Assembly: GCA_017405875.1 (NCBI GenBank)
Contig: JAFQZM010000038.1
Coordinates: forward strand, 21,314 to 85,313
Source: a bacterium
GTDB taxonomy: Bacteria; UBP6; UBA1177
Direction of reading: 5' to 3'
DNA: 64,000 nt
The position numbers and the translations under genes were made by a program. The stretch's first letter is position 1. Each line of letters starts with the position of its first letter. Positions 15,487-51,672 of this stretch are shown here, in pieces. A model generated the notes under the pieces. The model had not been told where the DNA came from, did no database searches, and was given only the letters and a program-made list of their open reading frames with translations.

Positions 15487-15524
15487 TGTAATATGCACCG
15501 GCTTTTTTGTTTGAGAGACTTTTC

Positions 15525-16808: not shown

Positions 16809-16945
16809 AAATGCAGGGCTTTTTTAGTAATATTTTGCATAATTATATGAATATGATATATTTTTTTGCAAAATTTCTTGCTTTTTACATTTTTCTTACT
16901 ATCATTGCCTCCGGATTTGTTATTTTTATTGCGATGGAGTAAGCA

Positions 16946-17152: not shown

Positions 17153-17167
17153 CCAGAGGAGGCGGAG

Positions 17168-18855: not shown

Positions 18856-18867
18856 GGAGGAGTGAAT

Positions 18868-19536: not shown

Positions 19537-20146
19537 GATCAATATTTTTGTATGGGTATCATGTTTGATCCTCGCCTCGATCCTTGCAGGCTGTGCAAAC
19601 GAATATCAGATCGAGCCTTACGACTACAAAGCCGAATATGAAAGGGTCAGCAAGACCAAATCAAGTGAAAATAAGACTAAAAAAGAGATCGATATTACCG
19701 ATATCGCGCAGAGAAGATCGAATTACCGCTACTCCGCAGTCGGCAAGAAAGATCCTTTCAGAAACTATTTCGGCGACATGGCGAGTCTCAACAAAGAAAA
19801 GAAGATCGTCAGCGAGTTGCAGAATTTTGATGTTACTGATCTCAGACTTTCCGCTATAATTTATGGTATAACCGATCCGAAGGCTGTCGTAATCGCTCCC
19901 GACGGAAAAAGCTATATCGTTAAAAACGGCAGTTTTATCGGCAAAAACTGGGGAAAGATCAGCAGGATTCTGCCGGATAAACTCGAGATCGTCGAGACAT
20001 ACAAAGATCCGCTCGGAAGAAAGATAATCAACAAACTTTATCTTGAACTTCCGATAAAGTCGCCTCTTAAAGAGTCCGAAGAACCGGATGACGCTGCGGA
20101 ATTCAACGGCGGCGAAGAGAAAGGAAAAGAAGATTTGAATAACTAA
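19520..20146 (+). CDS. pilP: Type IV pilus assembly lipoprotein PilP
   Basis: Lipobox LAGCAN, about 200 aa, lying between pilO and the secretin. ATG at 19520 follows GGTGGAGG. Confidence 0.6.
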   Translation: MQIKNKINIFVWVSCLILASILAGCANEYQIEPYDYKAEYERVSKTKSSENKTKKEIDITDIAQRRSNYRYSAVGKKDPFRNYFGDMASLNKEKKIVSELQNFDVTDLRLSAIIYGITDPKAVVIAPDGKSYIVKNGSFIGKNWGKISRILPDKLEIVETYKDPLGRKIINKLYLELPIKSPLKESEEPDDAAEFNGGEEKGKEDLNN

Positions 20147-20162
20147 TGGAACGGAGATTGGA

Positions 20163-22574
20163 ATGAAAAGTCTCAGGTTGTCATTTGTTCTTGTTTTGGT
20201 TTTTTCAGTTGTAACGGTTTTTGCTGTTGCTCAGAACAAGAATGATTCGTTATCCGTCGAACAGAACGGGAACAATGTCGTAGTTTCCGAAAATTTTGAC
20301 GGAACTTACTTTAAACTCAATTCCGACAGCGTTGAAGTTATCGGTCTCGGAGATGCGGCAGAAGGAACTGCCGAGCAGGGAACCGTTAACGGCAGGAAGG
20401 CGGCGCATCTTAAAATCAATGCTGACGAAGGAAACGTTCTTTTTGAATCGCTTGCAACGGGCATGACTTCCGTAAAAACCGGCGATTTCGACAGTCTCGT
20501 TTCTATGTCTGAAGCGAAAGAGCTCAAGAACAGCCGCGTCACGATGAACTCAAAGTCGGGAAATATCAGCTTCGCATTCACGGAGCAGCCTGAAAAAGTC
20601 AGATTTTTCACGTTGAAAGGTCCGGACAGGCTCGTTTTCGATTTTATCGGCATCAAAGGTTCGATGAAGTCTGCAAACGGTGTCCGCAGCGCGAATCATC
20701 CGGCTGGATACCGCGTTGTCGTAGAAAGAGAGATTCCGCAGTACTTCACGATCAGCCGCTCGAAAGTCTATGCTTTCGGTGCTGAAGGCAAAAAGATGTT
20801 TGCAGCTTTCAAAAACCAGCCCGCTGAAACGGCTGTCGCTGCTGCAGAACCTGTAAAGGCTGAGGAGATTCCGGCTGTTGAAAACAGAACCGAGATCCAG
20901 GGGCTTGCTTTCATCGGCGAAGAACCCGAAATCCTTAAAGTAAAAGCTGACAGAAAACTCGAAATCAGCAAAAACGTAAACGGACAGAATATAGAGATCA
21001 CCGTTAAAAACGCTTTCATCGCGAAAGACAAAGAGCAGGTTATCGATGCAACTTCTCTTACCGGTCCTGTTGCTGAAATCGCGGTATATAACGACAAGGA
21101 AAACGTTAAGATACTTGCAAAGATGAAATCGGCAAAACACGATCTCAAGATTGAAGAGTCGGCTCACGGAAGCGATTTCGTTTTCAATTTCAAAAATGAA
21201 AAAGTTCAGGGCGTAGCAGGTTATTCAGAAGCTCAGATCGTAAGACTCCCGCAGGCTGCAGTTGCACAGGAAGAGGGCGGCGCAGATGAAAAAGGCGGTG
21301 CGATCAATATGGAAGACGAGCCTGTTCAGTACACCGGCAAAAAGATCAACCTCGATTTCAAAGAAGTCGATATTCTTGATATTCTTCGCCTTATGTCCGA
21401 TATCAGCAAGCTCAACATCATCGCAGGCGACGACGTAAAAGGCACCGTCACGGTAAGACTTGTCGATATTCCTTGGGATGAGGCTCTTGACGTTATCCTC
21501 AAGAGTAAATCGCTCGGCAAAGAGAGATTCGGCAACATCATCAGAGTTGCTACGATCAGAACGATGCAGAGAGAAAAAGAGGAAGAACTTGCAAAGAAAA
21601 ACGCGCAGAAGAAGTTGGAACCTGTAAAAGTAAGACTCGTTCCGGTAAACTACGCGATGGCTGATAAACTTGTTCCGCAGATCAAAGAGCTCCTTACCGA
21701 CAGAGGTACGGTCAGCTACGATCAGAGAACCAACGTCCTTATCGTAAAGGATGTCGAGGAAATTCTCGACAAATCGGAACAGTTGGTTGACTACTTGGAT
21801 ACGCAGACACCTCAGGTTCTTATCGAAGCAAGAATCGTCGAAGCTACTTCGACGGCTGCTTTGGGTCTCGGTATCGAGTGGGGAAGCCACCATACTTATA
21901 CTGATGCAAACGGTCATCCGACCAACGCGATATTCCCGTACAACCTGGGCGTAGGTGCTAATGTTGCAGTTCCCGGTCCTGCAGATCCGACAGGAACGCT
22001 CGGTTTCATGTTCGGCAGCGTCGGTATGATCAACGACCTCAACCTTACTTTGAACGTCATGGAATCAGATGGTAAAATCAAGATCGTAAGTTCTCCGAAA
22101 GTCGCTACCCTCGACAATAAGGAAGCTATGATCCAGCAAGGTACCAGTATTCCTATCACGACGAGAGGTACAGGCGGCGATGTTACGACGAAATACGTTG
22201 ATGCCAGCCTTATCCTCAAGACCACGCCGCACATCACGGCTGACGGTTCGATTCTTTTGAACATCGAAATCAACAAGAGCGAACCCGACTGGTCAAATTC
22301 GAACTACCTTGGCGAACCTTCGATTATAAAGAAAGAAGCTAAGACCGAAATTCTTATCAAGAGCGGCGACACGGTTGTTATCGGCGGTGTCTACACCAAC
22401 CTTACTTCACGCACTAAGAGAGGTGTTCCGCTCCTTTCGAAGATTCCGGTTCTGGGCTGGCTTTTCAAATCGGAAGAGAGCAGAGTTGAAAGAAGCGAAT
22501 TGTTGATTTTCCTTACTCCGAGAATCATGAATAAGGTAAAATCGTCGATTCCTTTGCAGCAAAGTGAAGAGTAA
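20163..22574 (+). CDS. pilQ: Type IV pilus secretin PilQ
   Basis: 803 aa with N-terminal AMIN-like repeats and a C-terminal secretin domain (VVIGGVYTNLTSRTKRGVPLLSKIPVLGWLFK). Confidence 0.85.
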   Translation: MKSLRLSFVLVLVFSVVTVFAVAQNKNDSLSVEQNGNNVVVSENFDGTYFKLNSDSVEVIGLGDAAEGTAEQGTVNGRKAAHLKINADEGNVLFESLATGMTSVKTGDFDSLVSMSEAKELKNSRVTMNSKSGNISFAFTEQPEKVRFFTLKGPDRLVFDFIGIKGSMKSANGVRSANHPAGYRVVVEREIPQYFTISRSKVYAFGAEGKKMFAAFKNQPAETAVAAAEPVKAEEIPAVENRTEIQGLAFIGEEPEILKVKADRKLEISKNVNGQNIEITVKNAFIAKDKEQVIDATSLTGPVAEIAVYNDKENVKILAKMKSAKHDLKIEESAHGSDFVFNFKNEKVQGVAGYSEAQIVRLPQAAVAQEEGGADEKGGAINMEDEPVQYTGKKINLDFKEVDILDILRLMSDISKLNIIAGDDVKGTVTVRLVDIPWDEALDVILKSKSLGKERFGNIIRVATIRTMQREKEEELAKKNAQKKLEPVKVRLVPVNYAMADKLVPQIKELLTDRGTVSYDQRTNVLIVKDVEEILDKSEQLVDYLDTQTPQVLIEARIVEATSTAALGLGIEWGSHHTYTDANGHPTNAIFPYNLGVGANVAVPGPADPTGTLGFMFGSVGMINDLNLTLNVMESDGKIKIVSSPKVATLDNKEAMIQQGTSIPITTRGTGGDVTTKYVDASLILKTTPHITADGSILLNIEINKSEPDWSNSNYLGEPSIIKKEAKTEILIKSGDTVVIGGVYTNLTSRTKRGVPLLSKIPVLGWLFKSEESRVERSELLIFLTPRIMNKVKSSIPLQQSEE

Positions 22575-23605
22575 TGCAGTTTGTTTCTGCCGGAGAGTCC
22601 CACGGTTCGGAGCTTGTTGCCGTTCTCAGCGGATTTCCGGCGGGTGTCAGGTTTGACAGTGTTCTTTTTGAGGAAGATTTAAGGAGACGCCGCTTAGGGT
22701 TAGGTCACTCGGCAAGGCTCGATATCGAAAAAGATGATGTCCGGGTCGTTTCGGGTATCTCAGCCCGCGTGACTACAGGCGCTCCGATAGCTTTCCTGCT
22801 GAAAAACTCAGCGGAAAGCACGCTCTTTGAAAACGGAGTAATTGATAAAGGGTTTCCGAGACCGGGACATGCGGATTACAGCACGTTCAGGAAATTCGGG
22901 TACGACAACATTTCGACAGGCGCTGAACGCTCGAGTGCACGGGAAACGGCTTTAAGAGTCGCAGCGGGTGCTTTATGCAGGATGTTCCTTAACGAAATGA
23001 ATGTTACGGTAATTTCCGAAGTTCTTGAGATCGGCGGAGTTCCTTACAGCGGATTTGACGCTGAAAAGGCGCTTGCCGACAAAGCGAACGGTACCTACGG
23101 CGGAGTTCTGAAAGTTGTTGTTTCAGGCATTCCGGCAGGGTTGGGTTCGAATGTCCAGTGGTCTGATCACTTGGATTCACGGCTCGCGGCGGCATTGATT
23201 TCAATTCCGTCGGTGAAAGGAGTCTATTTCGGGGATACGGAACTTCATAAGTTGAGAGGAAACAATGCTGCCGATGCTTTCTGCGGAATGCGCGGCGAGC
23301 GGGCGACAAACAGATGCGGCGGGATCGAAGGCGGCATTTCAAACGGCATGCCTCTGGTTGCAACGCTTTATTTTAAGCCGATCCCGACTCAGCCTTTTGA
23401 AGTCGAATCAGTTTCGCCGCTTACAGGCAAAGCTGGAAAGTGTCTTCCCGGAATGAACGATCTCTGGTGTGTTGAACGAGCCGGAGTGATTGCCGAAAGC
23501 ATGGCGGCTTTGATCGTTGCTGACGCTTTCTGCGAGAAGTTCGGGTCTGACAATCTGAGTGATATCAAGTCGGCTTATGCGGCTTATCTGGAGAATATGA
23601 GATGA
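22574..23605 (+). CDS. aroC: Chorismate synthase
   Basis: MQFVSAGESHGSELVAVLSGFPAG is the AroC N-terminal signature. The start overlaps the pilQ stop (TAATG). Confidence 0.85.
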   Translation: MQFVSAGESHGSELVAVLSGFPAGVRFDSVLFEEDLRRRRLGLGHSARLDIEKDDVRVVSGISARVTTGAPIAFLLKNSAESTLFENGVIDKGFPRPGHADYSTFRKFGYDNISTGAERSSARETALRVAAGALCRMFLNEMNVTVISEVLEIGGVPYSGFDAEKALADKANGTYGGVLKVVVSGIPAGLGSNVQWSDHLDSRLAAALISIPSVKGVYFGDTELHKLRGNNAADAFCGMRGERATNRCGGIEGGISNGMPLVATLYFKPIPTQPFEVESVSPLTGKAGKCLPGMNDLWCVERAGVIAESMAALIVADAFCEKFGSDNLSDIKSAYAAYLENMR

Positions 23606-24102
23606 GGCGGCTCGGTTTGATAGGGTTTTCGGGAAGCGGAAAAAGTTCGCTTGCGGCTTTTGCAGCGAAGAAAGGTTTCAAGTCGGTCGATTCGGATGCT
23701 TTGATTGAAGCAAAAAATCCGAATGCGGCAGAGTTGCTTGAAAACGGTGCGGAGAATGATTTCAGAACGCTTGAAACTTCGGTGATAAGCGGAATTCTGA
23801 ATTCTGATTTCGATTTTGCGGCTTTCGGCGGCGGCGTTCATTTTGCTCATCCTGCATGGAAAGAGATTTACCAAAGCGGTCTCAAGCTGGTTTATCTGAG
23901 GAGTTCGTTCGAAAATCTCGTCGGGAGATTTGAGGAGAGACCTCTCTGTAAAAAGCTGGGGCGCGAGGGTTACGAAAAGCTCTTTTCGGCAAGAAGACCG
24001 CTTTACGAAAAGGCGGCGGCGTTTGTCGTCGATACTGACGGACGCGGTTTGAGTGAAATTTGGTCGGAGATTGAGGAGATATGGAACTCACTTTTTCGGT
24101 AA
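23602..24102 (+). CDS. aroK: Shikimate kinase
   Basis: P-loop GFSGSGKSS, about 166 aa, in the conserved pilQ-aroK-aroB synteny. Confidence 0.7.
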   Translation: MRRLGLIGFSGSGKSSLAAFAAKKGFKSVDSDALIEAKNPNAAELLENGAENDFRTLETSVISGILNSDFDFAAFGGGVHFAHPAWKEIYQSGLKLVYLRSSFENLVGRFEERPLCKKLGREGYEKLFSARRPLYEKAAAFVVDTDGRGLSEIWSEIEEIWNSLFR

Positions 24103-25079
24103 CACACACGACGAAAGTCGGATTCGCGAAGTCTTTTGCAGATTTTACGGACTCTCTCGGGTGCGACTGCTGTTTCGTGATCGACAGATCGCTTGAAAGT
24201 TTTGCGGAATCGCTTCCGGAGGTTCGTGTTTTCTACATTGACGGCGAAAAGGAAAAGGATATGAACCACGTTGAAAGCTGCCTTGAATGGCTGATCGACC
24301 TCAATGCCGGGCGCAAAACGACGCTTGTTGCAATGGGCGGCGGCGCTACGACCGATTTTGCCGCTTTCACGGCTTCAATCTACAACCGTGGAATGAGACT
24401 TGTGCTTGTTCCGACGACGCTTCTTTCGGCTGTCGACAGTTCGATAGGCGGGAAAACGGCTGTGAATTTCGTTGCGAAAAACACGATCGGCACCTTCTAT
24501 CCGGCGCATGAAGTTGTGATCATAGAGGATTTTTTCAAAACTCTCTCTCTGCAGCAGATTGCTTCAGGAAAAGCCGAAATTATCAAGCTTGCTTTGATAA
24601 AAGGCGGAAGACTTGCGGACATGGTTTTTGCGGCGGAAGACCTGCTTTCGGAAGAAGCTGTAACGCTTGCGATACTCGGCAAGTACGAGATCGTGAGCAC
24701 CGATTTTACGGATACCCTTGAAAAAAGAATTGTTTTGAACTGGGGGCATACATTCGGTCATGCGATAGAGATTTATTACGCTCTGCCGCACGGCCTGGCT
24801 GTTGCCGCCGGTATGGTTCTTGCACAGGAATGGGCTGAGATCGCAGGAGCGGACGAGGTCTTTCCGGCTAAAGAACTTGAAAAATTACTGCAAAAACACG
24901 GAGTAAAAAACGATTTGCAGAAATATAGAGACGAAAGTAAATGGCGTAAATTTATAATGTTGGATAAAAAGAGAAAGTTGGACAGAATTTCGATGGTTTA
25001 CCTGAAAAAAACGGGGGTTCCCGAAATAATTTACAGGAATTCTAATGACATATTGAGAGATTTGGAGGAATTAAGATGA
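24081..25079 (+). CDS. aroB: 3-dehydroquinate synthase
   Basis: GGGATTDFAAF and SAVDSSIGGKTAVN, with a NAD/metal-binding DHQS fold. Confidence 0.8.
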   Translation: MELTFSVTHTTKVGFAKSFADFTDSLGCDCCFVIDRSLESFAESLPEVRVFYIDGEKEKDMNHVESCLEWLIDLNAGRKTTLVAMGGGATTDFAAFTASIYNRGMRLVLVPTTLLSAVDSSIGGKTAVNFVAKNTIGTFYPAHEVVIIEDFFKTLSLQQIASGKAEIIKLALIKGGRLADMVFAAEDLLSEEAVTLAILGKYEIVSTDFTDTLEKRIVLNWGHTFGHAIEIYYALPHGLAVAAGMVLAQEWAEIAGADEVFPAKELEKLLQKHGVKNDLQKYRDESKWRKFIMLDKKRKLDRISMVYLKKTGVPEIIYRNSNDILRDLEELR

Positions 25080-26086
25080 GAAAGTTTTTCATTCTTACCC
25101 TGATGGTTGCTTCTTTAATGATGGTTTCATGCGTCGAAAGGCGTAATCGTGTCATCATTGACAAATTTATTCCGCTTATGGCGAGCAGCAACTGCGAGTT
25201 TAGACCCGGCGGTGATTATTATCAAACTGAAGGTTATATTGATCTGGCCTTTACGTTTGACTATCTGCTCGGTTTCCAGGTTACGAACTACATTCCGTCA
25301 AGTGACGGCGGAAATTCAGAACTGACTACTGCGGAAGCCAACTATTTCTATTTCGATGAAGTTGAAATAGAATACGAGTGGGATCCGAGACCTCAGGCTG
25401 ACGGAAGAAAGCTTGTCCTCGATCAGAAACTTTGGAACAAAAAGATAAGAAAAACCGAACACGCGAGAGTTGCAAAACCCGGTGATCAGGTCGCAGGCGC
25501 GGTTCATATTTTTGAAGAGGCTCAGGCAAAGAATCTTCTTGAGCATGTCAACGATATCGACTGGATTGCAAGTCCGCTTATCGTAAAAATAAGAGCTATC
25601 GGTGAACTTACGGACGGAACGACTGTTAAGACGAACAAGATGAATTTCAACGTTATTCCTACTTTTGGAACGACGATCCAGATGGGTTCGACATATTATA
25701 TTCCTGAAGGCGGTTTTCAGGCTGAGACTGATGAAAACGGCAAAGAGACAAAGTCGGCTGAAAAAGTTGAGTACGATACGATAATGTCTATGTGTGCTTT
25801 CAATGAAGCTCTGGCAGGCGGATGTGCAATCGGTCGTGATAATGCACAGGTCAACTGCTATGCAGGTGATACAGATTGGGAAAGGTTCATAGTCGAGAAA
25901 GAGGAAGGGACTTACATCCCCGGATATGCTGCTTTCGGTGTAGTTGAGACGATTTACAATAAATACAAAAAAACTGCCGGTGACAACGGTTATTACGCAT
26001 GCTGTCCTGGACAGGCTCCGGCAGAACCAGAGGAAGAAGAGGATGATGCTGCCAACGCAGCTAATGGTGCTGCAGGCGGAGAATAG
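25076..26086 (+). CDS. Hypothetical lipoprotein co-transcribed with pilMNOPQ-aroCKB
   Basis: Signal plus lipobox (MMVSC). The start overlaps the aroB stop (ATGA). Acidic Ala/Gly-rich tail. No recognisable domain. Confidence 0.55.
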   Translation: MRKFFILTLMVASLMMVSCVERRNRVIIDKFIPLMASSNCEFRPGGDYYQTEGYIDLAFTFDYLLGFQVTNYIPSSDGGNSELTTAEANYFYFDEVEIEYEWDPRPQADGRKLVLDQKLWNKKIRKTEHARVAKPGDQVAGAVHIFEEAQAKNLLEHVNDIDWIASPLIVKIRAIGELTDGTTVKTNKMNFNVIPTFGTTIQMGSTYYIPEGGFQAETDENGKETKSAEKVEYDTIMSMCAFNEALAGGCAIGRDNAQVNCYAGDTDWERFIVEKEEGTYIPGYAAFGVVETIYNKYKKTAGDNGYYACCPGQAPAEPEEEEDDAANAANGAAGGE

Positions 26087-26219
26087 CACTCTTTCAATCC
26101 GTTTTTTCTAAAAGTTTCTATCTGTTTTTTTCTGAAAAATTCCTTATAAAAAGTGATTTTTAAATATTTTTCCTTATTATGTACCGTTTTTTTGTTTCGT
26201 TTTTTATTTTGGAGGAAAA

Positions 26220-27020
26220 ATGAGACTTGTCCATCTGAAAGATGTAGTAACTTTGGGAAATGTCGCTATCGGTTTTCTTTCTGCTGTTTTGGCGATAGAG
26301 GGTGATGTCCAGCAGGCATGCTATTTGATAATGGTTGCTTTCGTGCTTGATTTTTGTGACGGTATCGTTGCGAGACTTACGAAAATGAGCAACGAATTCG
26401 GAAAAGAACTCGATCTTATCGCAGATCATGTGACTTACGCCGTATGTCCGGCATTTGTGCTCTACGCTTTTTTCAGGGTCGAAAACGGCGGATTTGTCAA
26501 TGCCCTGGTTGCTTACTGCATGGGTATGGTTCCTCTTGTTTTCGGCTGCATCAGACATGCGAGAAACGAGGTCTACGACATTGATTTTCCGCGTTTCTTT
26601 CTCGGTACTCCGCGCCCGGTATCAGCGTTTTATCTGGTAAGCCTTATCGGTGCAGGAACGCACCTCAGCGAATTTGTTCCTGCTGAGTATCTTCCGTACT
26701 ACAAATATTTCCTGATTCCGGTTTTCATCTGGATAGGCTGGAACAATCTTTCTTTCAGACCTTTCCTCAGCCATCATGGCCGCAAGTTCAATAAAAAGCT
26801 CAAATTCTTTATGAGTGCTGCAGTTGTTCTGCTTGTCATTAGCGGCATTGCTACGGCTGCCACCAGCAAACCGTGGCTTCTCGACTGTCTCCTTTTTGAA
26901 ATGCTCGTTTACACCTTCTTCACGCCGGTCTGCTTCGACAAAGGTGATCTTGACGGTTACAAAGAGTATGTCGCAGCTAAAAAGGCTGAAATCGCTGAAG
27001 ATATGAAACCCAAAGGTTAG
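26220..27020 (+). CDS. CDP-alcohol phosphatidyltransferase family protein (PssA/Pcs/PIPS-like)
   Basis: DFCDGIVARLTKMSNEFGKELDLIAD matches D-x2-DG-x2-AR-x8-G-x3-D-x3-D. Polytopic membrane protein. GGAGG RBS. Confidence 0.75.
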   Translation: MRLVHLKDVVTLGNVAIGFLSAVLAIEGDVQQACYLIMVAFVLDFCDGIVARLTKMSNEFGKELDLIADHVTYAVCPAFVLYAFFRVENGGFVNALVAYCMGMVPLVFGCIRHARNEVYDIDFPRFFLGTPRPVSAFYLVSLIGAGTHLSEFVPAEYLPYYKYFLIPVFIWIGWNNLSFRPFLSHHGRKFNKKLKFFMSAAVVLLVISGIATAATSKPWLLDCLLFEMLVYTFFTPVCFDKGDLDGYKEYVAAKKAEIAEDMKPKG

Positions 27021-27028
27021 AGGAAAAT

Positions 27029-28345
27029 ATGATAAGACAAGGCGTTATCCTTGCAAGCGGGCTTGGCAGCAGGCTCAACAGTGAAGGAAGAAATGAACCT
27101 AAACCGCTTATGCCTGTAGGCGGTATGGCTTTGATAGAGCGCGTTATAACGCTCATGCAGTCTGTCGGCATAGAAAAGATCGTTGTCGTCGTCGGTTACC
27201 GCGGCGATCAGATAAAAGAATATATAGCAAAAAACAATATTCATGGCGTCGTTTTTGCCGAGAATACCGAATACAACAAGAAAAACGGCATTTCTCTGCT
27301 TCGTGCTCATGAATTCCTGGATGAAGCTCCGTTCATGCTTTCAATGTCGGATCACATTTTTTCAAACGATTTTTTCGGAGATTTTCTGGAAAAAGCCGAG
27401 CCGAAACTGGAAAAATACGATGTCGTTCTTTCGGTAGACAGGAATATCGAAGGTGTTTTTGACCTTGATGATGCGACGAAAGTTGTTACCGAAGACGGTG
27501 AAATCACGACGATAGGCAAGGAACTTCCTTCGTACGACGCAGTTGATACGGGTCTTTTCCTCTGCAAACCGGCTGTATTTCCTAAACTGCAGGATATTTA
27601 TGACACGAAAGGCGATGTTTCCATTTCGGATGTCATGGGAACGGAGGCGCTTGAGAGAAAGTTCGCATGTGCAGAAATGACGGGACATCTCTGGCAGGAT
27701 GTCGATACTCCTTCGATGAAAAACGAAGCCGAGGAACGCCTTGTTGACAACTATCTTGAAAAGGATGAGTCATTCGGCTTTTTTTCGAATAAACTGTTTG
27801 CCAAAAGCGCGAAAGAACTTGCTCTTATGATTTTCGGGCATGAGCATTTCGACTGGAATCTGCTTAGTACCGTCGTTTTTATAGTTGTTCTTCTGTTTAC
27901 TGCAGTCGCTCTTTTTGCCGGTGTTCCGCAGCTTTCCGCTGTTCCGCTTCTGCTTGTGACATTCATTTTTTATCTCAGCAGAATCAGAAACAACGTCAGA
28001 ACTGTTCCGCTGAAAAACGAAAATTTCATTTTTTCATGGAAATTCAACTTCATACTTGCAACTCTGCCGGCTGTTCTGGAGACATGCGGAACGCTTTTAG
28101 TCGGTCTGCCGCTTGTTGTTGTGATGTTTGCCGTTTCGCTGGCCGAAGCTCTTAAACTCGGAAATGTCCTGCAGCGTCTCGAACTGCCGCAGATTTCCGA
28201 CAGTGTGGCTGACACTTACCTTTCGCCCTCTCTTTTCTGGATCGTTTATGTCGTCTGCATGCTGATTCTGCCTGAATGGTTCATCGGATTTGTTCCTTTT
28301 GCATACTTTATATTTCTGCCTTTTTCCGGTGAGAAGAGGGGTTGA
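27029..28345 (+). CDS. LicC-like sugar or phospho-alcohol nucleotidyltransferase fused to a C-terminal polytopic membrane domain
   Basis: N-terminus GVILASGLGSRL...PKPLMPV...IVVVVGY is collinear with LicC/MobA-like cytidylyltransferases. The last ~175 aa contain about 4 TM helices of unknown family. Confidence 0.65.
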   Translation: MIRQGVILASGLGSRLNSEGRNEPKPLMPVGGMALIERVITLMQSVGIEKIVVVVGYRGDQIKEYIAKNNIHGVVFAENTEYNKKNGISLLRAHEFLDEAPFMLSMSDHIFSNDFFGDFLEKAEPKLEKYDVVLSVDRNIEGVFDLDDATKVVTEDGEITTIGKELPSYDAVDTGLFLCKPAVFPKLQDIYDTKGDVSISDVMGTEALERKFACAEMTGHLWQDVDTPSMKNEAEERLVDNYLEKDESFGFFSNKLFAKSAKELALMIFGHEHFDWNLLSTVVFIVVLLFTAVALFAGVPQLSAVPLLLVTFIFYLSRIRNNVRTVPLKNENFIFSWKFNFILATLPAVLETCGTLLVGLPLVVVMFAVSLAEALKLGNVLQRLELPQISDSVADTYLSPSLFWIVYVVCMLILPEWFIGFVPFAYFIFLPFSGEKRG

Positions 28346-28755
28346 TGGAACTTAAAAAACGTGTCGGTAAAGATTTTTCGATCGATATAAGTTCGCTTGT
28401 CGATGTTCTTTTCACGCTTCTCATTTTCTTTTCTCTCACGAGCACTTTCGTAAAGGAATCAGGTCTTAAAGTCGATCTTCCGAAAGCAAGTTCCGATACG
28501 CCGCTCATTTCGGCTGAAAAGTTTGAAATAGCGATAAGTGCCGACGGCAGGGTCGCTTTGGGCGGAACAGAGGTTTCATCGGCTGAAGAGATCAAAGAGT
28601 TCCTTTCAAAATTTGACACGGATATGCGTTTAAAATATGTTATGGTCATCAAAGCCGACGTTACGACTCAGCACGGCAGGGTAACGGAAGTTCTTGATAT
28701 ACTGAAGTCTTTGAAATTTGAAAATATAGCAGTGGCGACGAGGTCAAAGGAATGA
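28345..28755 (+). CDS. ExbD/TolR-family protein (orphan; no exbB, tolQ or tonB adjacent)
   Basis: Single N-terminal TM with DISSLVDVLFTLLIFF. ATG overlaps the upstream TGA (ATGA). Confidence 0.65.
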   Translation: MELKKRVGKDFSIDISSLVDVLFTLLIFFSLTSTFVKESGLKVDLPKASSDTPLISAEKFEIAISADGRVALGGTEVSSAEEIKEFLSKFDTDMRLKYVMVIKADVTTQHGRVTEVLDILKSLKFENIAVATRSKE

Positions 28756-29036
28756 AAAAAAACCAGAAATTTCTCATTATCGGTTTTTTATTTTTGGTAT
28801 TTTCAGCTGTCTGCATCTACGACATCCTTTCTTCTTACGGCGAATTCAACCGCAACAGGGACAAAATCAAGGTGATAGAAGAAAAGCAGTATGTCATAAG
28901 CCGTGAAAAAGATATCTTGAATTGGAAAATAGAGCGTTTTTCCAAAAATCCGAAGGCTGCCGAGGAAATTCTCAGGCAGAAATACAAAATGATTCGCTCA
29001 GATCAATACAAATACAGATATACACCCGAAAAATGA
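28752..29036 (+). CDS. FtsB/DivIC-like septum formation initiator family protein
   Basis: 94 aa with a TM, a coiled coil and a C-terminal NPKAAEEILRQKYKMIRSDQYKYRY that resembles FtsB DP.YIEE.AR..LGM..PGE. 4-nt overlaps on both sides. Confidence 0.5.
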   Translation: MKKNQKFLIIGFLFLVFSAVCIYDILSSYGEFNRNRDKIKVIEEKQYVISREKDILNWKIERFSKNPKAAEEILRQKYKMIRSDQYKYRYTPEK

Positions 29037-31051
29037 CAGCTTTACTTGAATTCCGCTTTTTCGGTCACATTGTGACCCTTTTGTTTTCTATCCTTTCAAT
29101 TTATTTCAAAGAAAGTATTCCGATTCTCATCATACTTTGGAGTGTTTTCGTTTTTTTGGTCATTTATCTCCGTCTCGTTGAAAAGAAGAGAATCCCCGTG
29201 CAGCTTTTTCTGCTTCCGGTATTCATCGTTTCCGGCGGAGTCGCGGGAAGTCCGGTCCTTCCGCTCCTTTTTCTTGCTCTGCCTCTGACTTTGCAGAAAA
29301 GTGACGACAGTTCATATATCGGATTTGCTGTGACTACGTTCATTCTGATGCTTTGCAGCGGCAATATTTCCGATTATTCCGATTTTATCATTTATGTTTT
29401 ATTCGTTTTTTCAGCGATAGGTGTCTGGTTTTTCATGAGAAAGGGCTTCTCGTTTCTGCTGGCTCAAGCGCCTGCCGCTCCGATCGCGATGAAATCCAAA
29501 GTGAGTATTCCGCTTGTCAAGGATCCTTTCAGACCGCTGAAAAAGTATCTTGTCCGCACCAGGAATTTTAACAACAGACCAGTGTACCTGCGCCTGGTCG
29601 TACTTTTGCCCGGCGGGACTGCGAAAATATACGAATCCGATACCGAGTTTGCGCTGAAAGGTCTTCTGTTCAGGGCTGTTCACGATAAAACCGAGGTCGC
29701 GACCAACGTTCTTCTGGATGACGACAGGGAAAACATTCCGATGATGCCTGAATACAACTTCAGAATATACTATCCGATTTCACTGGTCGATTCCGACGAT
29801 GTAACCCTTTTTGAGCCGGAATATGTCGTCGTTGTCGATACAAGCATTAAAGGAAAAATCGACAAGGAAGAACTTATTCAGAAGTTCTCCGAGATAAAGG
29901 ACGACGTTCTCGAACAGCTCAGACAGTCCGAAACTTTCAGTCATATTTCTGTTGAAAAACAGAGAAATGCCACGCTTTATCAGGAGACTTCGAATATTGT
30001 CGATGCTTTCGACCATGACGAACTTCTCAAAGCCGCGGCGCTTGCGATATTCAATCTCGCTCCGGAAGCGAGCTGTGTATTTGTTACGACAAAAGGTGAG
30101 GAAAACACTTTCTCGGGTTACTCTTTTACAGTCAGAGAGTTTTCCAAAGGTAAACCGAAACTTGAGATGTCCGATATAAACGATCCGGTTACTGCAGAAA
30201 TGAAGGATTCCCAGTCGATTCACGCGATGATGGTGAACGGAAAAATCGACGATTACTACGAAGCGGCAGACGTGAACAAACGTAAGTCGAAACCTATTTT
30301 CCCTGCAGAATTCGATGATCTGAACAAAAAAAGCTGCATTATGATCCGCTGCATGACCTTTAAAAACGACGTCAAAGGAACGATTTCGGTTCTCACCGAC
30401 ACGACGAATGATTTTGAAGAACTCAAAAAGCATTCCGCATCGGTCAGGATGATTTCAAAAGTCGTTACGTCGGCGCTCAACAATATCGAAATGTTCCAGA
30501 AGATGGAGGAACTTTCAAATGTTGACGGTTTGACAGGGCTTTACAACAGGCGCTGTTTCAACAATATGATCGAACAGAAAATCAGCGAAGCGGGCAGGAC
30601 TAAAGTTCAGCTTTCTATGATCATGCTTGACATCGACTTCTTCAAGAAAGTCAACGATACTTACGGTCACAAAGCGGGCGACGACGTTATCCGCTTTATT
30701 TCGGCAACGATAAAGAAATCGATCAGAAAAGTCGATTTTGCCGCGCGTTACGGCGGAGAAGAATTCGTAATCCTGCTTTACAACACATCTATTGCGGCAG
30801 CGGCTAATATTGCGGACAAAATCAGGAATATAGTCCGTGATTCAACGGTCAATGCCGACGGATCTCCGCTGAACATAACGATTTCGCTCGGTGTTTCATC
30901 TTTCCCGATGCCTTCGATGAATGCGGAAAGCCTTGTCAAAAACGCAGATACCGCTCTTTACTATTCAAAAGAACACGGCCGCGATCAGGCTTCTGTTTTC
31001 AACAGCAGCATGGATGAAAGGGACGACGAGGAAGAGGAAGCTGAGGAATAA
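29033..31051 (+). CDS. Membrane-bound diguanylate cyclase (multi-TM N-terminus, middle sensor-like region, GGDEF)
   Basis: RYGGEEFVILL active site with an intact RxxD-like I-site context. About 6 N-terminal TM helices. ATG at 29033 overlaps the FtsB-like stop. Confidence 0.8.
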   Translation: MTALLEFRFFGHIVTLLFSILSIYFKESIPILIILWSVFVFLVIYLRLVEKKRIPVQLFLLPVFIVSGGVAGSPVLPLLFLALPLTLQKSDDSSYIGFAVTTFILMLCSGNISDYSDFIIYVLFVFSAIGVWFFMRKGFSFLLAQAPAAPIAMKSKVSIPLVKDPFRPLKKYLVRTRNFNNRPVYLRLVVLLPGGTAKIYESDTEFALKGLLFRAVHDKTEVATNVLLDDDRENIPMMPEYNFRIYYPISLVDSDDVTLFEPEYVVVVDTSIKGKIDKEELIQKFSEIKDDVLEQLRQSETFSHISVEKQRNATLYQETSNIVDAFDHDELLKAAALAIFNLAPEASCVFVTTKGEENTFSGYSFTVREFSKGKPKLEMSDINDPVTAEMKDSQSIHAMMVNGKIDDYYEAADVNKRKSKPIFPAEFDDLNKKSCIMIRCMTFKNDVKGTISVLTDTTNDFEELKKHSASVRMISKVVTSALNNIEMFQKMEELSNVDGLTGLYNRRCFNNMIEQKISEAGRTKVQLSMIMLDIDFFKKVNDTYGHKAGDDVIRFISATIKKSIRKVDFAARYGGEEFVILLYNTSIAAAANIADKIRNIVRDSTVNADGSPLNITISLGVSSFPMPSMNAESLVKNADTALYYSKEHGRDQASVFNSSMDERDDEEEEAEE

Positions 31052-31061
31052 ATTTCCCCGA

Positions 31062-32591
31062 TTATTTCCCGTCAACAGTGAATGATTCTCTGTGAAGTGA
31101 ATTGTCCGATTCGGTGTTTACAGAGATTCTGAGTTCTTTTTTGAGCTTGTCGAGCTCGTCTGAATATTTCTGCTCAAGCGCGAAAATTGTTTCTGGATGC
31201 GCTTTTACGGTGAGAACTCTGCTGCCGTAAAGTTTTACGTATTTCTTGATTTCGCGGAAAATCTGGAAAGTTACGGTTTCTCTTGAGCGGATTATGCCGT
31301 TTCCGCTGCAGTACGGGCACGGTTCGGTGAGAGACGAGATGTTGCTTTCAGTCGTTCTTTTGCGCGTTATCTGGATTAGTCCGAGGCGCGTGAAGTAGAA
31401 AACGGTGCACTTCGCCGGATCTTTTTCGAGTTCATGCTCGAGTTTTGCGATGACTTTTTTCTTGTTCGCCTGATTGCGCATGTCGATGAAGTCGACTACG
31501 ATGATGCCCGCTAAATTCCTGAGTCTCAGGTGGTATGCGATCTCTTCGGCAGCTTCGCAGTTCGTTTTGACGACGGTGCTTTCAAGGTCGCCTTTTCCGA
31601 CGAATTTACCGGTGTTGACGTCAATGACTGTCAGTGCTTCGGTCTGTTCGATGATAAGAAAGCCGCCGCTTTTGAGCCAGATTTTTTTCTTTACCAGTTT
31701 GGTGACTTCAGGTTCGATCGAATAGTAGTCGAAAATCGGGTAGGGCAGATCGTAGAATTTCACTTTGTCGTCTGGATTTTCGCCGTAGAAAGCAAAGTAG
31801 TCGCGCACAGCCTTTTCGTCGTTTTTATTGTCAACGACGATTTCGGAAAGTTCGCTCATACCTGTGTTCTGAACGAAATCGAGCATCGGGTCGAGCGCCG
31901 CTTCAATAAGCGCCGTTCCTTTGCCTTTCTGAAAAGTATTCTGAATCGAAATCCATTTTTTTATGAGGAAAACGACCTCTTTTTCGATGGTTTTGAGGTC
32001 TGTTTCAGCCGCCAGAGTCCTGAGAATTATTCCGTAACCTTTTTTCAGCACCTTCTGACCGAACTCTTTGAGCTCATCGCGCTTTTCGCGGTCGCTGATT
32101 TTGCGGCTTACACCGATGTGGTTGATTGTCGGTAGCAGAACGCAGTATCTTCCGGCAAGCGAAATGTGCGTCGTAAGTTTTGCACCTTTCTGTCCGATCG
32201 GCTCTTTTACGACCTGAACGAGGATTCTGTTTCCCTCTTTCGCGTATTCGGTGATGTCTGTGAATCTGCGCGGTTCGTTCTGCGTTTCCTGTGCCTGATC
32301 CTCGCTGCCGGCCTCGTCATCGTCATCGCTTTCGAGATTTTTCTGATACTCTTCATAAGTTATGTTGAGTTTCAGGTCGTTTGCGTGGATGAACCCGGTT
32401 CTTGTACCGCCGAATTCGACGAATGCCGACTGCATTCCCGGCAGTACGCGGCGGATTATGCCTGAATATATGTTTGACAGGCAGCTCCCTTCCTCCGAGT
32501 GCATGACGTGGAGTTCGACGAGTTTTCTGTCTTCAAGTATGGCTATTCGTTTTTCGCCGTAGGTGTTGTTTACGATTATCTGTCTGTTCAT
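31062..32591 (-). CDS. rng: Ribonuclease G/E family endoribonuclease
   Basis: S1 domain N-terminus and the RNase E/G catalytic core (DVNTGKFVG, DFIDM). Confidence 0.8.
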   Translation of the reverse strand: MNRQIIVNNTYGEKRIAILEDRKLVELHVMHSEEGSCLSNIYSGIIRRVLPGMQSAFVEFGGTRTGFIHANDLKLNITYEEYQKNLESDDDDEAGSEDQAQETQNEPRRFTDITEYAKEGNRILVQVVKEPIGQKGAKLTTHISLAGRYCVLLPTINHIGVSRKISDREKRDELKEFGQKVLKKGYGIILRTLAAETDLKTIEKEVVFLIKKWISIQNTFQKGKGTALIEAALDPMLDFVQNTGMSELSEIVVDNKNDEKAVRDYFAFYGENPDDKVKFYDLPYPIFDYYSIEPEVTKLVKKKIWLKSGGFLIIEQTEALTVIDVNTGKFVGKGDLESTVVKTNCEAAEEIAYHLRLRNLAGIIVVDFIDMRNQANKKKVIAKLEHELEKDPAKCTVFYFTRLGLIQITRKRTTESNISSLTEPCPYCSGNGIIRSRETVTFQIFREIKKYVKLYGSRVLTVKAHPETIFALEQKYSDELDKLKKELRISVNTESDNSLHRESFTVDGK

Positions 32592-35953: not shown

Positions 35954-38560
35954 ATGCTGAATCTGAAAAAGATAATTTTTCTGACAGCTCTGATCGCTTT
36001 TTCGTTTGTTTATCTTCCGGCTGAGGAAGTGGCGGAAGCTGACAATGTGAAAGTTCCGATCAATCTCAACAGCAAATTTAAACCGATAAATTCAGGCAAA
36101 AAGTTTAACAACAATTTGAAGCTCGGCAGGCCTGTTGCAGCGGAAAAGAAAGCTGATGAAGAGAATAAGGATGAAAAAAAGGACGAAAAGCAGGAAGAGA
36201 ACAAACTGGCAGAAAATGCGGCTCAGCCGAAAAACAACAGTAATAACAGCGATGTAAGAACGGTAACGCCTCCGCAGCCGAAAACGATTCTCAACAAAGA
36301 ACAGCCGAAAACTCCGGAAGACAACAAACTTCTGGATGCCGTAAAAGTCGAAATCAACGAACCGAAAGCGGCAAATATGGATCTCAAAATCAGGCTCGAC
36401 TTCAAAGACGAAGAGCTTATGAATGTCGTTAAACTCTTTTCCGATCTGCTCCAGAAAAATTTCATAATTCCGGAAAATCTGGGCAAGGCGAAAATCAATC
36501 TTCTCTCTCCGCAGAAAGTTACGGTCAGAGAGGCTTATAAAACGTTCCTCACCCTTCTTGCAGTCAACGATTTCAGTGTTTCTGAGGACGGTTCCTACAC
36601 GATAATCACGAAGGAAAAGAATATTCCGGAGATGAAAATCCCTTTTTACAAGGGAACTGACGTGCCCGATCTTTTCAAGATGGTTGCGACCATTATGAAG
36701 TTTGAATACGTCACGGCAGGCGACATTGACAAGGTTTTGAAGCTTTTCAGAGACAAAGGTGCGACTTCGGTCGTTTTCGACGACAAGACTTTGATCGTTG
36801 TCGATTACGCGGCTAATATCAGAAAAATCATGACTCTGGTCAAAGAGCTCGACCAGCCTTCCGAATCGGATAAGGCAGAGCTTTACTTCATCAAACTCAA
36901 CCACGTTCTTGCAGCAGATGCCCGCAAAATCATTGAAGATATTTTTAAGGATTTCTCCAAAAAGGGAACCAAGAAAGGGAAAAACAACGACAATACTCCT
37001 TCTCTCGGCGGTGTAGGAAAACAGGCTGAAGGAAACAACAATAACAACAACAGGTTTCCGCCGCGTCCTCCGTTTCCTCCTAACTGGGGCAGTCAGGATG
37101 ACGGCGAAGGTTTGAGTGAAACTTACATCCATATCGTTGCCGACGAAAGAAGCCAGCAGATAATCGTTCTGTGCAACAAGGCGACTTACAATCTGATTCT
37201 TCAGGTCGTTCAGAATATTGACCGCGAAGTCGAAGGCGAGGGCGAAATCCATGTCGTAAAGCTTCAGAACGCAAAAGCTGAAGATATGCTTAAGACATTG
37301 AATTCACTGTCGAAAAACAAAAAAGCGTCAGGTTCTTCCAAAAGCGGAAACAAAGGAACAGACGTTTTTGAAGGCGACGTTCAGATTTCTGCAAACGAAT
37401 CGACGAACTCCCTCGTTGTCGTTTCTTCGCTGCAGGATTTCAGGAACCTCAAAAAAGTTGTTGAAAAACTCGATGTAAAGCGCAAACAGGTTTTTGTCGA
37501 AGCGGCTATTCTCGAAGTCAGCATAGACAACGGTCTGGAATACGGCAACGCATACAGTGCGATGGGTTATGAAGTTACGATCGCCGGCGAAAAGGTTCCT
37601 CTTTTCTTCGGAAAGGCTCTCTCTTCGCCGACTCCCGGACTCGTTGCCGGCATGGTTGGTGCTTCGGTTGACGGAACAGCCGGACTTCCCGGTCTTTCCC
37701 TTGTAGACGGAATTCCTTCGATCGGACTCATTTTGAACGCGGCGCAGAACGATTCGACGGTAAACGTAGTTTCGACACCGCACCTTCTCACGACCGATAA
37801 CGAAGAGGCCGAGATCACAGTCGGTGAAACGGTTCCGTTCCCGTCGGGAAACATTCTTACCAGCACGACAGGAAGTACGATAACCTACACCCGTGAAGAC
37901 GTTGCGCTCAAACTCAAAATAAAACCGCAGATCAACGAATCGGGCTACATGACTCTTGAAATCAATCAGGAGATGACGGAACTCGGCGCGCAGACTGACT
38001 ACGGTTATAAAACGACCAAAAGACAGGCGAAGACCAAGATCAATGCTGAAAACGAACAGACGATAGTCATCGGCGGACTTATGAAGGATACGGTCACTGA
38101 AGGCGAGAACAAGATCCCGATCCTTGGTGACATTCCGGTTATCGGAAATCTTTTCAAGTATAAAAAAATCAATAAAACCAAAGTAAACCTTCTTCTTATC
38201 CTCACTCCTCACGTAGTTGACAGCAAAGAGGATTTTGAGCGCATTCTCCGTAAGAAAATGGAGGAACGTGATGAGTTCGCGAGAAAGTATTACGGCGGTG
38301 ACACCACGTTCGAAGAAACGGTTTACCTCGACAAAAGACGCGGAGCGCTTCTTTCGGTCGTAAATGCTGTCAACACTCAGCAGGCTTTCGAAAAAGAGGA
38401 ACTGAAAAGGATCGAAGCGGCTAACAAGAAGGAAAATTCGATAATGGTCACTCCGGACGGCGAAGAAAAACTCATCGAAAATTCTGATGAATCTTCCAAA
38501 AAAGGGAAGTCAAAAGATGCCGAAGACGAACTTGTTCCCGATATTGACGAAGAGGATTAG
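35954..38560 (+). CDS. gspD: Type II secretion system secretin GspD
   Basis: 868 aa with N0-N3-like domains, a secretin core (GETVPFPSG...VIGGLMKD...IPILGDIPVIGNLFK) and a C-terminal acidic tail. AGGAGG RBS. Confidence 0.8.
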   Translation: MLNLKKIIFLTALIAFSFVYLPAEEVAEADNVKVPINLNSKFKPINSGKKFNNNLKLGRPVAAEKKADEENKDEKKDEKQEENKLAENAAQPKNNSNNSDVRTVTPPQPKTILNKEQPKTPEDNKLLDAVKVEINEPKAANMDLKIRLDFKDEELMNVVKLFSDLLQKNFIIPENLGKAKINLLSPQKVTVREAYKTFLTLLAVNDFSVSEDGSYTIITKEKNIPEMKIPFYKGTDVPDLFKMVATIMKFEYVTAGDIDKVLKLFRDKGATSVVFDDKTLIVVDYAANIRKIMTLVKELDQPSESDKAELYFIKLNHVLAADARKIIEDIFKDFSKKGTKKGKNNDNTPSLGGVGKQAEGNNNNNNRFPPRPPFPPNWGSQDDGEGLSETYIHIVADERSQQIIVLCNKATYNLILQVVQNIDREVEGEGEIHVVKLQNAKAEDMLKTLNSLSKNKKASGSSKSGNKGTDVFEGDVQISANESTNSLVVVSSLQDFRNLKKVVEKLDVKRKQVFVEAAILEVSIDNGLEYGNAYSAMGYEVTIAGEKVPLFFGKALSSPTPGLVAGMVGASVDGTAGLPGLSLVDGIPSIGLILNAAQNDSTVNVVSTPHLLTTDNEEAEITVGETVPFPSGNILTSTTGSTITYTREDVALKLKIKPQINESGYMTLEINQEMTELGAQTDYGYKTTKRQAKTKINAENEQTIVIGGLMKDTVTEGENKIPILGDIPVIGNLFKYKKINKTKVNLLLILTPHVVDSKEDFERILRKKMEERDEFARKYYGGDTTFEETVYLDKRRGALLSVVNAVNTQQAFEKEELKRIEAANKKENSIMVTPDGEEKLIENSDESSKKGKSKDAEDELVPDIDEED

Positions 38561-38562
38561 TC

Positions 38563-44254: not shown

Positions 44255-44266
44255 TTGGAGGAAAAA

Positions 44267-50562: not shown

Positions 50563-50565
50563 TTT

Positions 50566-51663: not shown

Positions 51664-51672
51664 TTTTTACCT

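Follow-up and report, generated by a model that had tools for sequence, protein, structure and literature searches.

The stretch of DNA analyzed here, referred to as the window, comprises 64,000 nucleotides (nt) at positions 21,314 to 85,313 of contig JAFQZM010000038.1 (assembly GCA_017405875.1), from a bacterium of the candidate lineage UBP6. Between positions 26220 and 31051 of the window, on the + strand, lies a cassette of five tightly coupled genes for membrane proteins. An original prediction had proposed this arrangement, with spacings of 8, -1, -4, and -4 nt between consecutive genes, and reading of the open reading frames (ORFs) and junctions confirmed it. Gene 1 (26220-27020; 266 amino acids, aa) encodes a polytopic CDP-alcohol phosphatidyltransferase of the phosphatidylserine synthase (PSS) type, and gene 2 (27029-28345; 438 aa) encodes an IPCT-type cytidylyltransferase followed by a membrane domain. 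Gene 3 (28345-28755; 136 aa counted from its ATG) specifies a member of the ExbD/TolR family with one transmembrane (TM) helix, gene 4 (28752-29036; 94 aa) a bitopic coiled-coil protein weakly resembling FtsB/DivIC, and gene 5 (29033-31051; 672 aa) a membrane diguanylate cyclase. A TTG at 28342 is an alternative start for gene 3; for gene 5, the ORF list begins at TTG 28922, with ATG 29033 being the start in register with relatives. The 8 nt between genes 1 and 2 were read from the sequence as TAG..AGGAAAATATG, genes 2 and 3 meet at TGATG (-1 nt, or -4 nt with the TTG start of gene 3), and the junctions of genes 3 and 4 and of genes 4 and 5 are both ATGA (-4 nt). These tight overlaps suggest that the cassette genes are translationally coupled.

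Using two peptide patterns from gene 2, one genome per species of the GTDB set was scanned, which returned 74 loci (cited below by L numbers where needed), and gene order in relatives was judged by tblastn with the window proteins. The five-gene order proved to be conserved in approximately 24 species-level genomes, the gene 2 proteins of which share between 97% and approximately 40% identity with that of the window. The overlap between genes 3 and 4 is always -4 nt, while that between genes 2 and 3 varies from -4 to +1 nt, that between genes 4 and 5 is -4, -8, or -17 nt, and genes 1 and 2 are spaced by 3 to 10 nt in most genomes. The records carrying the cassette are named as rumen or gut metagenome-assembled genomes (MAGs) from water buffalo, yak, reindeer, and red deer, as "bacterium UBP6_UBA1177/1196/1209," as "Candidatus Sumerlaeota" (two sediment MAGs), and, in a few cases, as "uncultured Spirochaetales." None is named Fibrobacter, so the Fibrobacteres lineage presumed in the original prediction finds no support in the record names.

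Across the approximately 24 genomes the cassette is flanked by at least five different gene contexts. Flanks of the window type, with aroB and a lipoprotein gene upstream and rng downstream, are confined to the dozen closest genomes. In other lineages, MiaB-like radical-SAM and BFN-domain genes (sometimes VanZ) lie upstream and an epimerase gene downstream, or the flanking genes are quite different. In a complete 2.95-Mb chromosome (L026/L077), genes 2 to 5 follow a divergent ruvCAB-yebC block and there is no adjacent gene 1. In two further lineages an extra small ORF splits gene 1 from gene 2 (L081, 9477-10001, 174 aa; L085, 9747-10004, 85 aa); neither inserted ORF has a precomputed Pfam match, and that of L081 has no NCBIfam match. 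Variation in the cassette is thus confined to gene 1, which is a near-constant upstream neighbor, with genes 2 to 5 forming an invariant core. As genes 2 to 5 occur without an adjacent gene 1 in one complete genome, the tightest link is that among genes 2 to 5 and not that between genes 1 and 2. Given the recurrent order and overlaps and the differing flanks, the arrangement is more than chance. A gene for an NAD-dependent epimerase/dehydratase lies 7 to 220 nt after gene 5 in three non-rumen lineages (L075, 14034-15053; L081, 14168-15244; L082, 14039-15091). It was considered as a sixth cassette member and rejected, as the epimerase of the window (44255-45304) is only approximately 25% identical and is a different gene.

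Gene 2: an IPCT-type enzyme with an inactivated transferase domain

The N-terminal domain of the gene 2 product (residues 1 to 245; 27029-27763, + strand) is a cytidylyltransferase of the IPCT type with conserved catalytic residues, and its Pfam matches are NTP_transf_3/NTP_transferase. The best-scoring NCBIfam family was IPCT/DIPPS (NF041135), at 162 bits (E = 1.9e-47; residues 4 to 297), with the next family at 74 bits. In a phmmer search of the PDB the product matched the Archaeoglobus fulgidus IPCT/DIPPS structure (4mnd_A; E = 3.3e-28), the alignment running past the juxtamembrane helix into TM1, and a profile built from 31 clade members aligned with 4mnd_A over residues 4 to 420 (4MND residues 42 to 442; E = 3e-40). 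Gene 2 is therefore a full-length homologue of archaeal IPCT/DIPPS, and the mention of this enzyme as a precedent in the original prediction was apt. The designation as LicC-like was not. LicC (1jyk) and PntC (6pd1) align with only the N-terminal 120 or so residues (1jyk over residues 4 to 120; E = 2.4e-9, or 2e-17 with the profile), whereas the isolated IPCT domains 2xme and 4jd0 align with the whole catalytic domain (residues 3 to 235). No ispD model was among the best 25 NCBIfam families listed for gene 2, and a stand-alone relative with 45% identity scored 21 bits against the ispD model. Identity as LicC, PntC, or IspD was rejected, since these either align with the N-terminal nucleotide-binding half only or score far lower.

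Within residues 1 to 237, 66 positions are invariant among 31 homologues. They include the motifs GLGSRL...PK, DH, DDATK, DTG, and WQDVDTP, which are common to the active fusions described below and to A. fulgidus IPCT. As two structurally characterized IPCTs, but neither LicC nor PntC, align with the whole catalytic domain, including the phospho-alcohol-binding half, CDP-inositol is, on homology alone, the most likely product.

The neighborhoods of stand-alone relatives point to the same product. Acidobacteriota and similar MAGs have stand-alone proteins of approximately 253 aa, with approximately 45% identity, that are encoded directly upstream of CDP-alcohol transferases with intact motifs. 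These partner transferases score best against DIPPS, archaetidylinositol-phosphate synthase, and phosphatidylinositol phosphate (PIP) synthase and are fused to LPG_synthase_TM/HpnL-like or Exo_endo_phos domains, with a CarboxypepD_reg outer-membrane protein encoded nearby. Genes for LPG-synthase-like and carboxypeptidase-regulatory-like proteins adjoin both Bacteroides inositol-lipid clusters (Heaver et al., PMC9246714), of which the "alternative" cluster consists of an NTP-transferase and a CDP-alcohol transferase proposed to use CDP-inositol (PMC9246714). The neighborhoods of the stand-alone IPCTs thus match the Bacteroides clusters, which makes CDP-inositol a likely product of gene 2 as well. 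Three of the stand-alone loci (L078, 8001-12020; L079, 8001-12022; L080, 8001-12041) consist of an IPCT-like gene followed by a fused active transferase of approximately 800 aa, with genes for a CarboxypepD_reg outer-membrane protein and a DUF5686 protein upstream, and look like an uncharacterized CDP-inositol lipid cluster outside Bacteroidota.

The C-terminal domain (residues 246 to 438 plus stop codon; 27764-28345, + strand) consists of a juxtamembrane helix and six TM helices. In the original prediction it was assigned to no known family, but its fold is that of DIPPS and other CDP-alcohol transferases. An AlphaFold2 model (pLDDT 88) shows a nucleotidyltransferase fold, the juxtamembrane helix, and the six TM helices, and Foldseek aligned this model over its full length with 4MND as the best PDB match (E = 4.6e-21; TM-score 0.67/0.71). 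The membrane domain is poorly conserved in sequence; across the 31 homologues, P347 is its sole invariant residue and E272 and P387 are almost invariant, and there are no conserved polar TM residues. Pfam gave no MotA/ExbB/TolQ match for this domain.

To identify the nearest relatives of gene 2 outside the clade, 1.84 billion representatives were searched exhaustively with HMMER. The relatives so identified are proteins of 440 to 500 aa (some approximately 800 aa) that share 33 to 43% identity and carry the same cytidylyltransferase fused to a membrane domain. The CDP-alcohol signature, sought as a regular expression, is present in 56 of the 66 nearest long relatives outside the clade and in none of the 67 long proteins of the cassette clade. 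When 14 dead and 12 active fusion proteins were aligned with MAFFT, the remnant of the signature fell at approximately residues 310 to 345 (27956-28063, + strand). With the signature written as D1xxD2G1xxAR-x8-G2xxxD3xxxD4, the clade proteins have a three-residue deletion at D1, the substitutions D2 to I, G1 to F, and A to S, a replaced G2, and nonacidic residues at D3 and D4; the arginine tends to persist while the other positions are lost. In the profile alignment, likewise, nonacidic clade residues stand opposite the 4MND motif DGCDGEIAR...G..D...D. These comparisons show that the ancestry of gene 2 lies in a bacterial family of enzymes in which IPCT and a CDP-alcohol transferase are fused and that its transferase domain has kept the fold and lost the metal-binding and catalytic aspartates clade-wide. 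As the signature is lost, gene 2 cannot be bifunctional, and from its sequence it appears to be an active IPCT-type enzyme tied to the membrane by the pseudoenzyme remnant of a former partner domain.

The stretch LPAVLETCGTLLVGL, in which the original prediction had seen a faint ExbB motif, lies in TM3-TM4 of the CDP-alcohol-transferase fold, just C-terminal to the GxxxDxxxD site of the active relatives. The relatives outside the clade also include triple fusions of approximately 800 aa (P0235, P0284, P0292, P0293, P0312, P0331, and P0332), in which IPCT and an active CDP-alcohol transferase are joined at the C terminus to a further, large membrane domain, which, judging from L078, may be LPG-synthase/HpnL-like.

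The other cassette genes and their surroundings

The product of gene 1 matches Pfam PF01066 (CDP-OH_P_transf) above the gathering score (52.3 bits; threshold, 22), so that the pairing of a cytidylyltransferase with a CDP-alcohol transferase anticipated by the original prediction holds for genes 1 and 2. Its best NCBIfam family is pssA (TIGR00473), at 88.2 bits, which is below the equivalog cutoff of 107 bits and approximately 58 bits above any nonserine synthase; archaetidylserine synthase scored 80 bits, and the PIP, phosphatidylcholine, and phosphatidylglycerophosphate synthases scored at most 30 bits. The only PDB matches were the Methanocaldococcus jannaschii PSS structures 7pow and 7b1k (5.6e-10), the nearest named database relatives are PssA proteins of Bacteroidota, and similarity to the DIPPS-like partners of the stand-alone IPCTs is only distant. 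All eight residues of the CDP-alcohol signature have been described as absolutely conserved, D1 to D3 binding the metal and D4 acting as the catalytic base, the replacement of which by N abolishes activity (PMC4634129). In gene 1 the signature is intact (26349-26426, + strand; translated as D44xxD47G48xxA51R52-x8-G61xxxD65xxxD69), and the TM1 motif KDxxT (K7-D8-V-V-T11) fits (D/N)xx(T/S). The signature aspartates and glycines are kept in all cassette orthologues, with R52 being K in three. Gene 1 is more conserved than gene 2, with 64 to 71% identity where gene 2 has approximately 50%; overall, its identity is 64 to 88% in most of the clade and approximately 44 to 51% in the most distant lineages. 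Compared with subclass II PSS enzymes (the Bacillus subtilis PssA type and M. jannaschii PSS, 7B1K/7POW), gene 1 has the same best family, an intact signature, and a polytopic build, but it carries approximately 120 extra, highly conserved C-terminal residues, adjoins a cytidylyltransferase gene rather than psd, and scores below the family cutoff.

Gene 3 matches Pfam ExbD (PF02472) at 90.3 bits (threshold, 25.4) and falls under both the TolR and the ExbD equivalog cutoffs. Seventeen orthologues share its TM segment, IDISSLVDVLFTLLIFFSLTSTF, almost without change, and the aspartate within it, D20 (28402-28404), is invariant. Gene 3 is thereby shown to encode a canonical ExbD/TolR protein with the proton-relay aspartate. 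In known systems the TM helix of ExbD/TolR sits inside an ExbB/TolQ pentamer. No member of the MotA/ExbB/TolQ family was found among the 48 long ORFs of the window, and no ExbB/TolQ gene lies within 10 kb on either side of the cassette in seven relatives (L075, L077, L081, L082, L083, and L085 among them), in agreement with the earlier observation that this ExbD lacks a local partner. The simplest inference is that the partner is encoded elsewhere in the genome. The protein shares its domain and the TM aspartate with the ExbB-ExbD-TonB and TolQ-TolR-TolA motors but differs in having no adjacent ExbB/TolQ or TonB/TolA gene in the genomes looked at and in being followed by an FtsB/DivIC-like gene, the product of which has no TM histidine.

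Gene 4 scored 22.6 bits against Pfam DivIC (PF04977), under the gathering score of 28.9, with 2 to 76 of the 80 model positions aligned; of 15 orthologues, 10 match DivIC (best E, 7.5e-7). A profile of gene 4 matched only coiled-coil chains in the PDB and no FtsB. The N-terminal TM helix (residues 4 to 30), the periplasmic coiled coil that follows, and the length of 94 aa fit the FtsB/DivIC build, and the protein is, weakly, FtsB/DivIC-like in sequence. A role as a TonB/TolA-like transducer following ExbD was considered and dropped, as the C-terminal half fits the DivIC model end to end and the TM helix has no histidine. In enterobacteria an FtsB-family gene is linked to a cytidylyltransferase gene in the ftsB-ispD-ispF operon, where IspD is a soluble enzyme of the methylerythritol phosphate pathway. 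This is a loose parallel only: the two cytidylyltransferases have the same broad fold, but gene order and partners differ, and gene 2 encodes a membrane-bound fusion.

Gene 5 carries a GGDEF domain at residues 496 to 652 (30518-30988; Pfam, 158.7 bits) that is active-looking, with the active site GGEEF (574 to 578) and the inhibitory site RKVD (565 to 568) both intact; G574, G575, E576, E577, F578, R565, and D568 are invariant. The N terminus has five or six TM helices (residues 10 to 140), followed by two GAF/PAS-like domains (residues 167 to 284 and 328 to 465; 29531-30427) and a signaling helix before the GGDEF domain. The top Foldseek matches of the AlphaFold2 model (pLDDT 73) were the phytochrome-diguanylate cyclases 6et7 and 5llw and the GAF-GGDEF protein 4zmu. 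Matches to the first 490 residues came from this clade alone (61 proteins). That the TM domain of gene 5 might be the missing ExbB received no support, since in the model its helices are short and there is no large cytoplasmic domain, and the structural matches are sensory cyclases. The domain matches and overlaps of genes 4 and 5, together with the spacing, place an FtsB-like gene and a GGDEF gene in the same putative transcription unit as genes 1 to 3, as had been claimed.

Upstream of gene 1 is an AT-rich intergenic region of 133 nt (26087-26219, + strand) that ends in GGAGGAAAA, resembling a ribosome-binding site, and this region is probably where the promoter of the cassette lies. Consensus scans for promoters and terminators across the region gave matches at chance level, with no sigma-70 consensus above chance at 26087-26219, and Rfam returned no match at an E value of ≤1 upstream of or within the cassette, so that a riboswitch or other RNA there was rejected on the basis of this search. 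The single transcript is thus inferred from spacing and not shown. Downstream, the RNase G gene (rng, - strand) converges on gene 5 with 10 nt between the stop codons (31051-31062), leaving no room for separate terminators.

The intergenic region is preceded by a long series of abutting + strand genes. It includes aroA, pilM-pilN-pilO-pilP-pilQ, and then aroC-aroK-aroB (15507-25079), which overlap or abut, and ends in an orphan lipoprotein gene. Synteny of pilMNOPQ with aroK-aroB is known in proteobacteria; here it is found in a UBP6-type genome with aroC added. The predicted lipoprotein (25076-26086; 336 aa), the gene for which overlaps the aroB stop codon, has a signal peptide ending in MVSC and an acidic C-terminal tail rich in Glu and Asp. 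It has no Pfam or NCBIfam match and is kept, at 52 to 81% identity, only in the closest rumen relatives (L001 to L012). The 1,145-aa product of a gene at 12016-15453 combines three Lcl C-terminal domains with a ZU5 domain, which is unusual for a bacterium. Machinery for type IV pili and type II secretion is unusually abundant in the window, with a second secretin gene beside type II secretion system E and F genes (35954-41486, + strand) and a PilR/PilS-like two-component pair beside pilC/pilT/pilB-like genes (46371-53430, - strand). Two facing paralogues of approximately 1,020 aa each (53581-56670, + strand; 56908-59961, - strand) gave weak DUF7619/DUF11 matches only and are adjoined by the gene for an 855-aa subtilase (60044-62611, - strand). 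As for the cassette itself, an anti-phage defense island was discarded, as none of the six proteins compared with the PADLOC defense-system models gave a match.

Functional readings of the cassette

The reading that we tentatively prefer is that CDP-inositol is made at the membrane and passed to a separate transferase, probably that of gene 1, and that these enzymes are coexpressed with proteins of the envelope, division, and c-di-GMP signaling. The gene 2 protein, anchored by its dead transferase domain and probably a homodimer as in 4MND, would convert CTP and L-myo-inositol-1-phosphate to CDP-inositol at the cytoplasmic face. Without a working transferase of its own, it must hand the activated head group to a different CDP-alcohol transferase, and gene 1, lying 3 to 10 nt upstream in most genomes, is the obvious candidate. 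The gene 1 protein would then use a Kennedy-type or BEPIS-type route to form an inositol-phosphate lipid. The ExbD-like protein would act with an ExbB/TolQ pentamer whose gene lies at another locus of the genome, and it, the FtsB-like protein, and the cyclase would be coexpressed because they belong to the same context of envelope growth and division.

There are precedents for an IPCT with a separate transferase. According to the account in PMC4587543, which summarizes Jorge et al. (2015), the route is established in Rhodothermus marinus, where IPCT and a separate CDP-inositol-using lipid synthase (BEPIS) are encoded together with myo-inositol-phosphate synthase (MIPS). As far as that account and the description of the putative alternative cluster of Bacteroides vulgatus and Prevotella (PMC9246714) extend, both systems resemble the cassette in combining a putative CDP-inositol-making cytidylyltransferase with a separate transferase that places phosphoinositol on a lipid, and the stand-alone relatives of gene 2 occur in clusters of this kind. 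The cassette differs from the systems so described in having no adjacent MIPS or HAD gene, in having a partner of the PSS rather than the DIPPS/PIP synthase type, and in that its cytidylyltransferase carries a dead transferase domain. A. fulgidus IPCT/DIPPS has the same two-domain build and fold along the whole of gene 2, with cytidylyltransferase motifs in common, but gene 2 lacks the CDP-alcohol signature and is found in mesophilic bacteria in a cassette with ExbD, FtsB-like, and GGDEF genes. The nearest relatives outside the clade, the uncharacterized bacterial fusions (P0223 to P0363), share the domain order and cytidylyltransferase motifs of gene 2 and differ in the signature that 56 of the 66 keep intact, for example, as DGCDGEIARL..G.W.D...D.

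Several observations weigh against this preferred reading. The gene 2 score of 162 bits is far under the NF041135 equivalog cutoff of 580. Searches of the 64-kb window, and of 10 kb on either side of the cassette in seven relatives, gave no MIPS (Inos-1-P_synth/NAD_binding_5) match, which leaves the supply of inositol-1-phosphate unproven. The characterized relatives of gene 1 are only CDP-diacylglycerol (CDP-DAG)-dependent serine transferases and not enzymes with a CDP-alcohol donor. PSS dimerizes via helices 1, 3, and 4, unlike the six-TM class, which uses a TM3-TM4 interface (PMC8633023), so that a heterodimer of the gene 1 and gene 2 proteins is no obvious fit. A gene 1 relative with 39% identity (L086) lies behind VanZ with no IPCT gene adjoining. 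The 489-aa protein encoded after it was considered as an IPCT fusion and rejected, having no similarity to gene 2; from its translation, we take it to resemble urocanate hydratase. Genes 1 and 2 are also less strictly linked than the rest of the cassette, as the chromosome lacking an adjacent gene 1 and the two lineages with an inserted ORF demonstrate. Lastly, the invariant coupling of genes 2 to 5 receives no mechanistic explanation from this analysis. The preferred reading was nevertheless given more weight than its closest competitor.

That competitor, which we consider rather unlikely, is an inherited neighborhood without a shared pathway, in which gene 1 is a housekeeping phosphatidylserine synthase acting on CDP-DAG and serine, the gene 2 product is used by an unlinked transferase, and genes 3 to 5 act independently. 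PSS enzymes use CDP-DAG as the donor. From this, together with the PSS affinities of gene 1, the different dimer interface, and the VanZ-linked relative without IPCT, gene 1 may be the phosphatidylserine synthase of the lineage. It is PSS-like by every sequence test, and in the non-rumen lineages and the IPCT-less relative it has an upstream synteny of its own (MiaB-like radical SAM, BFN domain, and VanZ). The chromosome with only genes 2 to 5 is in keeping with such independence, and all five proteins are from families with well-known stand-alone roles. However, the overlaps at the three junctions from gene 2 to gene 5 are kept from 97% down to approximately 40% gene 2 identity amid reshuffled flanks, which is unusual for unrelated genes; genes 1 and 2 remain closely spaced in most genomes; and gene 2, having no transferase of its own, needs some partner.

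The preservation of stop-start overlaps over deep divergence favors some physical or stoichiometric link, as would exist in a single inner-membrane assembly. Here the dead DIPPS-fold domain, tethering an active IPCT, would be the organizing subunit, a scaffold or ligand-sensing pseudoenzyme that assembles cotranslationally with the ExbD protein, the FtsB-like protein, and the cyclase, so that the use of proton-motive force, septation, and c-di-GMP output would be tied to the activation of head groups or to the state of the lipids. The core of genes 2 to 5 has stop/start overlaps in every genome, including the one without gene 1, and all four products are membrane proteins. Moreover, the dead domain is full length across the clade with a fold predicted at high confidence, and the sensory part of gene 5 is unique to the clade. 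This assembly is nonetheless improbable, as a specific interface should show more conservation than one invariant and two nearly invariant residues and as the TM helix of the ExbD protein is of the ordinary type that inserts into an ExbB/TolQ pentamer.

Two further proposals can be dismissed as very improbable. The membrane domain of gene 2 had been suggested to stand in for ExbB/TolQ/MotA in a stator with the orphan ExbD, which its translational coupling to gene 3 and the lack of ExbB-family genes nearby might favor, but Foldseek and the profile alignment give it the six-TM fold of 4MND, derived from active transferases, and this fold forms no pentameric pore (PMC8633023) and here has neither a Pfam MotA_ExbB match nor conserved polar TM residues. 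The original prediction had itself named a match of this domain with a familiar, unrelated family as grounds for refutation, and by that standard the suggestion fails. Synthesis of di-myo-inositol phosphate as a compatible solute, as by the IPCT/DIPPS of hyperthermophiles, would agree with the full-length homology of gene 2 to this enzyme but is ruled out by the dead transferase motif, the DIPPS signature being destroyed in all clade members; gene 1 is PSS-like and not DIPPS-like, and the hosts are from rumen and sediment and are not hyperthermophiles.

Every part of the cassette belongs to a known family. What is new is the clade-wide inactivation of the fused transferase domain with its fold retained, a partner transferase of the PSS type, and the invariant coupling of gene 2 to an ExbD gene, an FtsB-like gene, and a cyclase gene. 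The literature searched returned no description of this coupling and no counterpart of the combination, in line with the original prediction that it is not a described operon. The coupling of genes 2 to 5 provides a concrete case for asking whether ExbD/TolR proteins act outside classical ExbB/TolQ operons, and it bears on the way in which deep-branching diderms coordinate lipid synthesis with division and c-di-GMP. Were the single-assembly reading true, it would amount to a new wiring of head-group activation to proton-motive force and possibly to a non-ExbB context for ExbD. Gene 2 is a clear natural case of a membrane pseudoenzyme domain, in which an inactive transferase holds an IPCT at the membrane. 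If the preferred reading of a CDP-inositol route is true, a whole candidate lineage of uncultured bacteria, including rumen members, would make inositol-type lipids via CDP-inositol, a route for which Rhodothermus is as yet the only demonstrated case and which has been proposed for Prevotella and Bacteroides.

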